Positions 34,267 to 39,831 of a DNA stretch of 64,000 nucleotides are shown here, piece after piece; position 1 is the first letter of the stretch; the number at the start of each line of letters is the position of its first letter. Where the stretch lies: assembly GCA_964637955.1 (NCBI GenBank), contig CAZWXQ010000004.1, forward strand, positions 11,368 through 75,367. The letters run 5' to 3'. The DNA comes from an uncultured Gammaproteobacteria bacterium (lineage in GTDB: Bacteria; Patescibacteriota; Microgenomatia; Levybacterales; UBA12049). The notes under the pieces were generated by a model. That model searched no databases. It had not been told where the DNA came from and worked only from the letters and a program-made list of their open reading frames with translations. Position numbers and translations under genes: made by a program.

Positions 34267-34285
34267 GACTTCGCCTGAGCCATTG

Positions 34286-34359
34286 TACCAGGGGTGGGAG
34301 TCGAACCCACGACCTTAGGTTTATGAATCCTATGCTCTAACCAACTGAGCTACCCTGGC
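34286..34359 (-). tRNA. tRNA with anticodon CAT (Met or lysidine-Ile2). CCA is not encoded.
   Basis: Hand-folded cloverleaf: GCCAGGG / TA / GCTC-AGTTGGTTA-GAGC / TAGGA-TTCATAA-ACCTA / AGGTC / GTGGG-TTCGACT-CCCAC / CCCTGGT-A. G1-U72 wobble. Confidence 0.8.
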
Positions 34360-35056
34360 GTGCTAGTCCTTCGATTAATCCTATTATTTTATAATAAATA
34401 CGTGCCGGTTTACTAACTTTAACAGACAAAGTTCCATAATGTTCATTGAAATTATCGTAAATTTTCTTACTTTTTACCTTTTTAAAACTAGTTTTCGTGA
34501 ATTGATCTAATGGAATTCCTGTCATCTCAGACCAATAATATTTAACTAACTGTTCTCTTTTACGATGGGTTTCATTAATTCCAACATAACACCTCATTTG
34601 AGAAATTGGAATTCCAAAGCACGTTTGCAACCAAATCAGGAAGAATTTTATCATTTTAGGATCAGAGTTGCAAAGTTCTATTTTGCGAGTTTTCTTGCTT
34701 CCTTCTCCCCAATACAAAGCTAAACCCGCAATTAATAACTCTCTCTCGGTCATTCCTGAAAGATATTTTAAACCATCTATTCTTGACTCTTGAATTAATT
34801 TTAATCGTCGATTTTTTTGCTCCAATGCGTTTCTTAAACGACCTAATTCTGCACCTTTAATTTTTGATTTTCTCAATTCTTCTAATTGCTCTACGGAAAG
34901 CACAATATCTCTAACCCAAATACTTACTGTGCTTTTTGAAATCTGAAGTTCAGAAGCAATTTTTTTAACGCTTAATCCATTTTTTCTTAATTTTCTAGCC
35001 TCTAATTTAAGTAATGATTTCGCCATCGAACCTACAATATATAATAGTATTAACAC
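34337..35056 (-). CDS. HTH plus LAGLIDADG-like (single-motif) homing-endonuclease-family protein. Its 3' end overlaps the tRNA 5' end by about 22 nt.
   Basis: N-terminal HTH (KLRKNGLSVKKIASELQISKSTVSIWVRDI). LLIAGLALYWGEGSKK resembles the LAGLIDADG motif with its catalytic acidic residue. Confidence 0.45.
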   Translation of the reverse strand: MLILLYIVGSMAKSLLKLEARKLRKNGLSVKKIASELQISKSTVSIWVRDIVLSVEQLEELRKSKIKGAELGRLRNALEQKNRRLKLIQESRIDGLKYLSGMTERELLIAGLALYWGEGSKKTRKIELCNSDPKMIKFFLIWLQTCFGIPISQMRCYVGINETHRKREQLVKYYWSEMTGIPLDQFTKTSFKKVKSKKIYDNFNEHYGTLSVKVSKPARIYYKIIGLIEGLARQGSSVG

Positions 35057-35079
35057 TATATCTTAGGTTTTAATTATTG

Positions 35080-35108
35080 TCAATTAACAGTTGGGGTGCT
35101 ATAATACC
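35080..35108 (+). promoter_or_regulatory. Sigma70-like promoter: TTGTCA (-35), 17-nt spacer, TATAAT (-10)
   Basis: ttgtcaattaacagttggggtgctataat. It would drive the candidate ncRNA. Confidence 0.5.
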
Positions 35109-35114
35109 TGAACG

Positions 35115-35440
35115 CGCGGGGTAGTGTACAGTGCACGTGAGGCTTAATTTAATGGGCCGTTTTGATAGTAATACCAAAAATGAACTCAGCTATTTCGGTG
35201 AACTCCTAAATTTTATTAAGGACAATACCGAGGGAAGACTCGCTTAGGCGAGAACCCGTAGAGACTACACGCTGGGCTCCTAAGCAATCAAGGATTTATA
35301 CAAAGCTTGCCAAAGGATGAAGATATAGTCCGACACTCTGAGTAATCGGAGATAACAGATAGCATAATCTCACAGGCTAGGCGCAACTCCTAGCCCCGCA
35401 ACAAATTTAATGGAGGCATCAAGCCTCCATTTTCTTTAAT
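35115..35440 (+). ncRNA. Candidate structured non-coding RNA of about 320 nt (class unknown), or a long regulated leader
   Basis: A 450-bp gene-free region carries a consensus promoter, several stable hairpins (ctcgc-ttag-gcgag, ggctagg-cgcaact-cctagcc) and an intrinsic terminator. It may contain a 31-codon small ORF (MGRFDSNTKNELSYFGELLNFIKDNTEGRLA). Confidence 0.35.
35412..35440 (+). terminator. Intrinsic terminator: ggaggc-atcaa-gcctcc followed by a T-run
   Basis: ggaggcatcaagcctccattttcttt on the plus strand. Confidence 0.6.
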
Positions 35441-35506
35441 TTCAATCTTCAACTTTAATCTTATAGTTAGGTATAAAATACCCTTTATTTCCCCATTCTT
35501 AATCAC

Positions 35507-36763
35507 TTGATTTTAGCTAAATTTTATCCTATAATAATCGCCGTGAATATGGAAAATAGATTTAGCACACCAATTCAATCAAGTAACGACAGAGGATCTT
35601 TTTATAAAGACGGCCTTGGTATAGGAAAACTTGAGGACAGTCTTGCCAATTATCAAAGAGAGCATGATTTGCGAATTGAAGGCTTAAGAGGCAGTCTTAA
35701 TCAAACAGAGGTAAACATTTTAGAAGCAACTCTAGAACAAGCAAAACAGGCTGGAATTATTACCCTACCCCCTGAATTACAAGACAAAGGTTGGTTTGAA
35801 TTATTAAAAGAAGGTCAAGGAAATGAATTCTATTACCGCTATGGATACTTAAGGCAAATTCCTGAAACCATAGCAGAACTTCGCTCAAAACAAGAACCAT
35901 TATTTTTTATGCCTCATGACTATAAAGATGTTACATTTGAAAATTTTGAGATGCGATGTGATGGACACGAAAAAGCATGGACACTCTTAACTCATTTTGG
36001 CCCAACTCCACCAAAAGGATTATATCTTTGGGGTAATTATGGAACAGGAAAAACTCACCTAATCGCTGCATTTGCACGTGGCCTCCAGGCAGAAATAACT
36101 GCAGGCACATTTGGTAGAATTGCTGATTTCGCTGGCTCTTCAATAGCACAGTACGAAGCTGCATGGAAAGAACAAATGGAACCAGCAAAGCAGGCAGAAC
36201 GAGCAGCATATGATAAATGGAGAGCAGATTCTGCTAATACATCAAAAGGCTATAAAGAATGGCAAACCAAAGAAGGTCAAGTCAAAGCTTTACAAATAGA
36301 ACTAGATCGAATTGTTCCTAGAAATCTCAGAAGAGCAAAAGATGCTTATCCTTTCCAACCCTCTGACATAGCATTTGCAACATTTGATCATCTTATGGAA
36401 CGCTCAGGGGACGAAGAATTTATGAATAAATTTCTTAGCAGAAGAATAGTTATCATAGACGATGTTCATCCAAAAGATGACAGAGCAAGGCTAGATTTTA
36501 TTCAAAGGATAGTAGAAAAACGCTACAATGAATATAGATCAGGCGCTACATTCTTCACAAGCAATCTTTCTCCTGAAAAAGTTCTGGTAGGATCAAACTA
36601 TCCCAAAGAAATAGGTGAAAGAGGCCACAGTAGACTTCGCGAAATGACAATGCCCATAGAATTTGATTCTACAGATTACAGATTAAAAATAGCAGAGCAG
36701 GCAGACGCAGACTTATTAAGACTAGTGGAACAACTTAGGCAAGATCAACCCAGAACAGAATAA
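35507..36763 (+). CDS. DnaC/IstB-like AAA+ ATPase (helicase-loader family) with an N-terminal extension and an insertion of about 110 aa between Walker A and B
   Basis: LYLWGNYGTGKTHLIAAFA (Walker A), RIVIIDDVH (Walker B), FFTSN (sensor I). Alternative start at MENRFS (35549). Confidence 0.65.
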   Translation: MILAKFYPIIIAVNMENRFSTPIQSSNDRGSFYKDGLGIGKLEDSLANYQREHDLRIEGLRGSLNQTEVNILEATLEQAKQAGIITLPPELQDKGWFELLKEGQGNEFYYRYGYLRQIPETIAELRSKQEPLFFMPHDYKDVTFENFEMRCDGHEKAWTLLTHFGPTPPKGLYLWGNYGTGKTHLIAAFARGLQAEITAGTFGRIADFAGSSIAQYEAAWKEQMEPAKQAERAAYDKWRADSANTSKGYKEWQTKEGQVKALQIELDRIVPRNLRRAKDAYPFQPSDIAFATFDHLMERSGDEEFMNKFLSRRIVIIDDVHPKDDRARLDFIQRIVEKRYNEYRSGATFFTSNLSPEKVLVGSNYPKEIGERGHSRLREMTMPIEFDSTDYRLKIAEQADADLLRLVEQLRQDQPRTE

Positions 36764-39511: not shown

Positions 39512-39586
39512 TGGTGGGTTAGGATGGAGTCGGACCATCGACATCTACTTTATAAGAGTAGCGCTCTACCGCTGAGCTACTAACCC
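39512..39586 (-). tRNA. tRNA with anticodon TAT (Ile-UAU). CCA is encoded.
   Basis: GGGTTAG-TA-GCTC-AGCGGTA-GAGC-G-CTACT-CTTATAA-AGTAG-ATGTC-GATGG-TCCGACT-CCATC-CTAACCC-A-CCA. Acceptor, anticodon and T stems are fully paired. The T-loop is unusual (UCCGACU). Confidence 0.7.
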
Positions 39587-39831
39587 AAATTCTTACTAAT
39601 TAACCATTCTATATATTTTTTACTTTTATAACTTTTAAGCTTTCTTTCTCTTTTTAAAACTTCTGATTTTGTTTCAAATTTCTCTGTGTAAACTAGCTTA
39701 TCTGTTTTTAAAATCCTAGTAGTTCTAGTCTTACCAATTAGATGCTGATTTAATCTTTGATCTAAATCACCAGTTGATCCAATATAATATCTCCCGGTCT
39801 CTTCATTCTTCAGAATGTATAACCAAAACAT
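39580..39831 (-). CDS. GIY-YIG nuclease family protein (small, YhbQ/UPF0213-like)
   Basis: MFWLYILKNEETGRYYIGSTGDLDQRLNQH is the GIY-YIG catalytic motif. Overlaps the tRNA 5' end by 7 nt. Confidence 0.75.
   Translation of the reverse strand: MFWLYILKNEETGRYYIGSTGDLDQRLNQHLIGKTRTTRILKTDKLVYTEKFETKSEVLKRERKLKSYKSKKYIEWLISKNLG

Follow-up and report, generated by a model that had tools for sequence, protein, structure and literature searches.

Positions 35115-35401 of the DNA stretch analysed here (64,000 nucleotides of contig CAZWXQ010000004.1, assembly GCA_964637955.1; hereafter the window) very probably constitute a Levybacteria-type Patescibacteria gene for a tRNA-fMet with anticodon CAU, split between transfer RNA (tRNA) positions 33 and 34 by a group I intron of 218 nucleotides (nt) that contains no open reading frame (ORF). 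The gene occupies a gap, with no ORF of at least 60 amino acids (aa) between 35029 and 35549, that separates an ORF for a helix-turn-helix (HTH) protein from an ORF for an ATPase. A preliminary description, made from the letters of the sequence, had seen in this protein-free gap a structured RNA of about 320 nt with a sigma-70 promoter and an intrinsic terminator, and had proposed for it a novel non-coding RNA, a transcription-attenuating leader of the ATPase gene or the carrier of a 31-codon peptide; an Rfam scan and a covariation analysis were suggested as checks, and both were carried out. The sequence features and the structured RNA were confirmed, and the novelty and the leader and peptide proposals were not. 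The feature is real, but it belongs to a kind already known and had been misread as novel: an apparent orphan non-coding RNA would thus be reclassified as a split initiator-tRNA gene.

The group I intron and its insertion site

At gathering thresholds the Rfam scan of the window returned three matches, two tRNAs and the group I intron family RF00028, the latter at 35135-35352 on the forward strand with 71.9 bits (E = 2.7e-16 for the whole 64-kb window). The gathering score of this family is 50 bits, and the match spans the full model, positions 1-253, without truncation. The family signature strings GUAGAGACUA (J6/7-P7) and GAAGAUAUAGUCC (J8/7-P7') are found in the alignment. RF00028 was the sole Rfam family matched in 34900-35600 even at a permissive cut-off (E up to 1), a result that rules out riboswitches, 6S RNA, tmRNA and RNase P RNA.

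Since the flanks of the match look like tRNA halves, splicing was carried out in silico at every junction that leaves the intron with a 3'-terminal G, and each product was examined with ARAGORN. A single junction yielded a tRNA, the one that joins U35144, the end of exon 1, to C35363, the start of exon 2, after G35362; its product is a 70-nt tRNA(CAU). The intron is therefore placed at 35145-35362, between tRNA positions 33 and 34, with U33 of the tRNA as U(-1) of the 5' splice site. CCA is not encoded after exon 2, where the next bases are CAA. An intron of the tRNA-Leu(UAA) type at 34/35 was considered and ruled out, as there is no terminal G followed by AA and ARAGORN accepts the 33/34 junction only. 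In its default mode ARAGORN reported only the two uninterrupted tRNAs in the window and missed the split gene, so that a genome annotated in this manner would seem to lack it.

Helices P3, P4, P6, P7 and P8 and the P3/P7 pseudoknot are all present in the intron and are backed by comparative data (Table 1). The splice-site wobble in P1 is formed by U35144 and G35155, a U-G pair kept in 19 of 19 homologs, and the P1 pairs are 99% kept across the same set. The bases AUG at 35152-35154 may pair with the first exon-2 bases, CAU (35363-35365), as a P10, which would give a continuous P1/P10 guide sequence. P7, the guanosine-binding helix of group I introns, is preceded by the J6/7 sequence GUAGA and joined by the J8/7 sequence GAAGAUA, in accordance with the Rfam consensus AGACUA...AAGAUAUAGUC. 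Loops L2 and L9 are both of the GNRA type.

Conservation and covariation among relatives

For the HTH protein 862 homologs were found, in sources named Patescibacteria, Microgenomates or Levybacteria, and the contigs that carry them keep the order XerC, DivIC, SAM_HAT-like gene, gap, HTH gene, tRNA-Met, (racemase), MurD. In all lineages scanned but one, the gap next to the HTH homologs holds an RF00028 match on the opposite strand; in the exception (L008) no match reaches the gathering score, yet a shorter intron of the same type is present; the scores of the homologs range from 68.6 to 74.6 bits. An exact-pattern scan on the intron core (GAGACTACACGCTG, 20-50 nt, GATATAGTCCGACAC), run over a set in which each GTDB species has one genome, gave matches in 19 genomes, mostly Candidatus Levybacteria/Levyibacteriota. 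The same splicing procedure gave a tRNA(CAU) with a 30-nt exon 1 and an intron of 185-222 nt at 33/34 in 21 of 23 related loci; for the remaining two, whose matches are close to the end of the sequence fetched, no call was obtained.

Nineteen distinct pre-tRNAs were aligned (alignment A1). RNAalifold recovered the acceptor, D, anticodon and T stems of the tRNA with P1, P2, P3, P4, P5, P6, P6a, P8 and P9 nested among them, and P7 was added as a pseudoknot for the pairing statistics. Standard pairs occupy 97.1% of the cells, a figure that drops to 37-43% if the partners are shifted by 1-3 columns; 25 pairs are changed on both sides, and the observed covariation score was reached by none of 500 shuffles. 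The structure of the RNA is hence far above chance by both the Rfam E-value and covariation. Covariation is seen in P2, P3, P5, P6a, P8, P9 and the T stem, with compensatory changes abundant in P2, P6a, P8, P9 and the T stem, where all five pairs are compensatory among homologs. No variation is seen in P7, in the acceptor and D stems or in most of P1 and P4, and exon 1 is nearly invariant across the 19 homologs. This pattern of variation is that expected of a functional ribozyme within a functional tRNA.

The intron is polymorphic in the clade, since alleles without it occur: the ligated-exon junction GCACRTGAGGCT|CATAATCTCAYAG is found in at least 120 metagenome contigs, and 5 of the 80 intron-less loci fetched from these encode a tRNA identical to the spliced product of the window. 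Two Logan contigs end at the predicted boundaries, one identical to the window that stops exactly at 35144 (L003, SRR14271336) and one 100% identical to it that starts exactly at 35363 (L002, SRR14271332). Branches of an assembly graph arise at points of sequence divergence, so that these breaks mark the predicted exon/intron boundaries, and they would be expected if co-occurring relatives had identical exons and an intron that is different or missing. Another Logan contig 100% identical to the window (L001) starts at 35374.

Some contigs of metagenome-assembled genomes titled 'Gammaproteobacteria' or 'Lysobacterales' (L015, L018, L021, L024 and L030) carry a split tRNA of the Levybacteria type. 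In three (L021, L024 and L030), XerC is 67-74% and DivIC 43-52% identical to the protein of the window, and the odd taxonomy of the five is probably due to mis-binning or placeholder names.

Table 1. Predicted features of the split tRNA gene and of its surroundings in the window
Feature	Position	Strand	Basis or remark
Group I intron, 218 nt, no ORF, terminal (omega) G at 35362	35145-35362	+	RF00028, junction test and covariation
tRNA-fMet exon 1, tRNA positions 1-33: CGCGGGG, short D arm, anticodon-stem 5' strand, C32, U33	35115-35144	+	ARAGORN on spliced sequence
tRNA-fMet exon 2, tRNA positions 34-73: CAU anticodon, A37, A38, anticodon-stem 3' strand, 4-nt variable loop, T arm CTAGG-CGCAACT-CCTAG, CCCCGCA, A73	35363-35401	+	ARAGORN on spliced sequence
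P1, exon GGCU (35141-35144) with guide GGCC (35155-35158)	35141-35158	+	read from sequence
P2 hairpin, GUAA (GNRA) loop	35159-35180	+	6 of 8 pairs with compensatory changes
P3 5' strand CTCAGC; partner GCTGGG at 35271-35276	35185-35190	+	100% paired, one pair changed on both sides
P4-P5-P6/P6a domain	35195-35257	+	alignment, covariation
P4	35195-35200/35226-35231	+	five of six pairs invariant
P5	35204-35206/35220-35222	+	covaries
P6	35233-35234/35256-35257	+	
P6a	35239-35243/35248-35252	+	covaries
P7 5' strand GACTA; partner TAGTC at 35326-35330	35263-35267	+	invariant in 19 of 19 homologs
P8, extended in the lineage of the window	35278-35317	+	3 of 5 pairs compensatory; length varies among homologs
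P9 hairpin CTCTGA-GTAA-TCGGAG, GNRA loop	35336-35351	+	100% paired, 4 of 6 pairs compensatory
Sigma-70-type promoter of the split tRNA gene, TTGTCA-17-TG-TATAAT	35077-35105	+	consensus scan, 11 of 12 matches
Intrinsic-terminator-like hairpin and T-rich tail	35409-35438	+	7 nt past the tRNA 3' end
Divergent promoter-like site, TTGACA-17-TATAGT, facing the HTH ORF and tRNA-Met	35055-35083	-	consensus scan
230-aa protein, N-terminal HTH and C-terminal LAGLIDADG-like domain	34337-35029	-	adjacent gene, outside the RNA
Canonical tRNA-Met(CAU), presumed elongator	34285-34359	-	Rfam, ARAGORN
DnaC/DnaI/IstB-like P-loop ATPase ORF	35549-36763	+	weak profile matches
tRNA-Ile(UAU)	39512-39586	-	ARAGORN

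Transcription and proposed splicing pathway

The promoter that the preliminary description had placed upstream of the RNA is present, with a TG extension, and the 5' end of the mature tRNA lies 9 nt past the end of its -10 hexamer. The promoter scan by itself is weak (11 sites, against 6.3 expected in shuffles); the site is made credible by the flanks of many homologous loci, read by eye, in which a TTGAC(T/A)-17-TAnnAT element again precedes the RNA at a comparable distance. A second, divergent site presumably acts as a promoter for the opposite strand, and the -35 hexamers of the two sites overlap, sharing the palindrome TTGTCAA. The terminator-like hairpin is likewise found, as AATGGAGGC-ATCAA-GCCTCCATT at 35409-35431 followed by TTTCTTT, with 9 pairs of which 5 are G-C; it is not conserved among the homologous loci examined.

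A transcript of about 320 nt would run from this promoter to the hairpin terminator, and its intron would fold into a standard group I core, P1 to P9 with the P3/P7 pseudoknot. The guide AUG|GGCC would pair with the exon-1 end, GGCU, and, through P10, with the exon-2 start, CAU. An external guanosine bound in P7 would attack after U35144, and the freed 3'-OH of exon 1 would then attack after the terminal G35362, so that the exons would be joined and the anticodon loop CU|CAUAA restored, with the expected ligated junction GAGGCU|CAUAAUCUC. RNase P, 3' trimming and CCA addition would finish the tRNA. Catalysis, end processing and the use of the split tRNA in initiation are taken here from knowledge of the families concerned.

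Identity of the split tRNA

The determinants for the formyltransferase are a 1:72 mismatch accompanied by G2-C71, C3-G70 and A73, and a mismatch of the C1xA72 type is the main determinant of both formylation and EF-Tu exclusion. The spliced tRNA has the 1:72 mismatch, G2-C71, C3-G70 and A73; its acceptor stem CGCGGGG/CCCCGCA with the C1xA72 mismatch, its A73 and its anticodon loop CUCAUAA are identical to those of Escherichia coli metZ, annotated as 'tRNA-initiator Met(CAU)'. Other traits weigh against an initiator. The three G-C pairs at 29-31:39-41 are absent, the pairs found being A29-U41, G30-C40 and G31-U39, and pair 11:24 is U-A instead of the classical A-U, which lowers the confidence in the initiator identity and leaves that in the intron class as it was. 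The D loop is short and without GG, the T loop is CGCAACU and not TTCRANY, three homologs have U1-A72 in place of C1xA72, and homologous published genes are labelled 'Met', not 'fMet' (Nakagawa et al. 2026, PMC13011429).

The same split gene structure could thus belong to an elongator tRNA-Met or to a tRNA-Ile2, the initiator being encoded at 34285-34359 or by another gene. The published label Met(CAU), which follows that of the best intron-less BLAST hits (PMC13011429), would agree with this, as would the anticodon stem and the 11:24 pair of the split tRNA. Against it stands the identity of acceptor stem, discriminator and anticodon loop with the E. coli initiator, C1xA72 included, and the tRNA(CAU) of the adjacent gene (34285-34359) pairs G1 with U72 and has a body of the standard elongator type. 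Moreover, the window encodes a tRNA-Ile(UAU) able to read AUA, so that a CAU-type tRNA-Ile2 may be needless. An elongator or tRNA-Ile2 is accordingly improbable, and on these sequence marks the split gene can be assigned to the initiator tRNA with considerable confidence.

A non-functional gene in decay, with a pseudo-tRNA and a dead intron, is highly improbable. The odd D and T loops and the missing initiator marks might be read in that way; however, the exons are almost invariant in at least 19 species, the T stem varies by compensatory pairs only, the same tRNA is encoded by intron-less alleles and the promoter is conserved. If the split gene encoded the sole initiator tRNA of a genome of about 1 Mb, all translation initiation would rely on ribozyme splicing, a dependence that is already accepted in comparable instances.

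The D loop and T loop (35124-35136 and 35377-35393 in the window) co-vary in three classes (alignment A1, loci L033-L112): ACAGU with CGCAACU, AAGGC with UUCGAU(A), and ACGG(C)U with UUCAACU or UUCGACU. These classes look like covariation of tertiary contacts, one class having neither GG nor UUC.

Relation to known introns

The classical intron at 33/34 of tRNA-fMet was first described in cyanobacteria, and some of its copies encode the PD-(D/E)XK endonuclease I-Ssp6803I. It is one of four classical bacterial tRNA intron classes, listed as 'fMet.2Ug', which in the numbering used there stands for CU/...g/CAUAA (Williams, bioRxiv 10.1101/2020.01.27.920355), and 33/34 in tRNA-fMet is called a well-characterized site by Nakagawa et al. 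(PMC13011429). The junction in the window is the fMet.2Ug junction, at 33/34 with U(-1) and a terminal G. The window intron shares with the classical one the initiator tRNA(CAU) as host, the CU|CAUAA insertion point and the P1/P10 guide, and is likewise a small ribozyme of the group I kind within the anticodon loop. It differs in having no encoded endonuclease and in its host, a member of the Patescibacteria whose initiator tRNA body is unusual; its family is also only distantly related to the fMet 33/34 introns of Bacteroidota with which it was compared.

The closest published relatives are the Met(CAU) 33/34 introns of two Microgenomatia genomes, GCA_001029755.1 and GCA_013426185.1 (PMC13011429, Table 1 and Table S3). 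The Table S3 sequence of the former starts with TGCGGGGTAGTGTAC and ends with CATAATCTCGCAGG...CCGCAA, and the core strings of its intron match those of the window. An nhmmer profile built from 21 introns of the family scored 120.9 bits with this intron and 68.2 bits with the second, nearly over the full length in both, as compared with 61.3 bits for an IC3-labelled Arg(UCU) 34/35 intron and 19.7 bits for a Bacteroidota fMet 33/34 intron. On these matches and scores the window intron falls in an already catalogued lineage. The tRNA (TGCGGGGTAGTGTAC...CATAATCTC...CCGCAA), the insertion site and the intron lineage are the same; the genomes are others, the window copy has a longer P8, and the published label is Met where fMet is used here. 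In that publication the two Microgenomatia introns were not the subject of an experiment, only the Asn and Asp 35/36 introns having been validated and not the Met(CAU) 33/34 class, and the neighbouring HTH gene is not discussed (PMC13011429). The window thus adds a further case, from the Levybacteria lineage, to the documented pattern of group I introns that interrupt Patescibacteria tRNA genes.

Outside the Patescibacteria, and within the part of Table S5 of PMC13011429 used for comparison, the best match to the core is found in the IC3-labelled tRNA-Arg(UCU) 34/35 introns of Bacteroidota and Bacillota, which have in common with the window the strings CTATATCGGTGAAACC, GGCAATACCGAGG, CCGTAGAGACTACACG and GAAGATATAGTCC. 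These introns differ in host tRNA, in an insertion point one nt away and in P1 and P2. By this similarity the core of the window intron resembles IC3. Nakagawa et al. placed none of the Patescibacteria tRNA introns in subgroup IC (PMC13011429), which speaks against such a placement, and for this reason no formal subgroup assignment is claimed.

The neighbouring HTH gene

Between the two tRNA genes the HTH gene is polymorphic, present in some genomes and absent from others; where it is absent, tRNA-Met stands back to back with the initiator tRNA gene. The last 7 codons and the stop of its ORF lie inside tRNA-Met(CAU), with an overlap of 23 nt (34337-34359). As the ORF ends there, an RNase P cut at the tRNA 5' end would remove the stop codon of the messenger RNA; the arrangement suggests that expression of the HTH protein and maturation of tRNA-Met may compete. 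The overlap measures 10 nt in two other loci (L004 and L009).

The protein contains a motif-like ...LIAGLALYWGEGS... with an invariant E. Searches with the product of 34337-35029 in Pfam, NCBIfam, PHROGs and PDB (phmmer and profile search) gave HTH matches only and no LAGLIDADG profile match, and Foldseek against PDB gave no support for a LAGLIDADG fold. An obligatory maturase role of the protein is unlikely, since the adjacent gene is missing, at the locus, in at least six intron-bearing genomes.

The HTH gene co-occurs with the intron, and the linkage is strong as calculated without correction for phylogeny. Free-standing F-CphI and the ORF-less psbA intron of cyanophage S-PM2 form a collaborative homing pair in phages. 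By analogy, intron and gene could be a two-part mobile unit in which the HTH/LAGLIDADG-like protein is a free-standing homing endonuclease directed against the intron-less initiator-tRNA gene near 33/34. With its ORF-less intron the host copy would be immune, and intron and gene would be co-converted into naive alleles by collaborative homing in trans. This proposal is rather doubtful: one locus (L082) is a counter-example, and paralogs of the HTH gene are found beside intron-free tRNAs. The case would also differ from the phage pair in its setting, a tRNA gene on a bacterial chromosome and not a protein-coding gene of a phage, and in that nuclease activity and target are putative for the window protein. 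If true, it would be the first collaborative homing pair at a bacterial tRNA gene and would explain the spread of ORF-less tRNA introns despite the limited mobility that Nakagawa et al. ascribe to them (PMC13011429). The linkage of intron and LAGLIDADG-like gene is the part of the locus with some potential for new insight.

The ATPase gene and the 31-codon ORF

The ATPase has a long insert between the Walker A region and the C-terminal part; NCBIfam PRK08116 matches it in two stretches, and the best Pfam match covers residues 152-181 only. Among the related loci examined, only the lineage of the window has the gene in the interval from the initiator tRNA to the SAM_HAT-like gene, and the ATPase gene hence looks like a recent insertion. 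A promoter-like site of its own lies at 35507-35535, downstream of the terminator.

The probability that the RNA is an attenuating leader of the ATPase gene, or the messenger of a 31-codon peptide, is practically negligible. The terminator does stand about 65-110 nt upstream of the ATPase gene, and an ATG-initiated ORF of 31 codons does exist, with its ATG at 35153 and a TAG stop. However, the RNA is conserved in other related loci examined, from which the ATPase gene is absent; this restriction of the neighbourhood to the window lineage, together with the separate promoter-like site past the terminator, contradicts the leader. The peptide fares no better, because in homologs the micro-ORF has anything between 8 and 49 codons and opens with ATG, GTG or TTG, and because its 'start codon' is the AUG of the intron guide sequence.

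Other tRNA genes of the window

A tRNA-Ile with the anticodon UAU is uncommon in bacteria. The one in the window is conserved near the locus in many Levybacteria-type genomes, and its presence suggests that AUA may be read without a lysidine-modified tRNA-Ile2. Its 5' end is overlapped by 7 nt by an ORF of 83 aa for a GIY-YIG protein of the URI type (39580-39831, reverse strand), in the place of which a paralog of the HTH protein is found beside tRNA-Ile(UAU) in L004. A GIY-YIG gene also adjoins the initiator tRNA in L108 and lies just downstream of it in L010-L012; small nuclease-like genes seem to gather beside tRNA genes in this clade.
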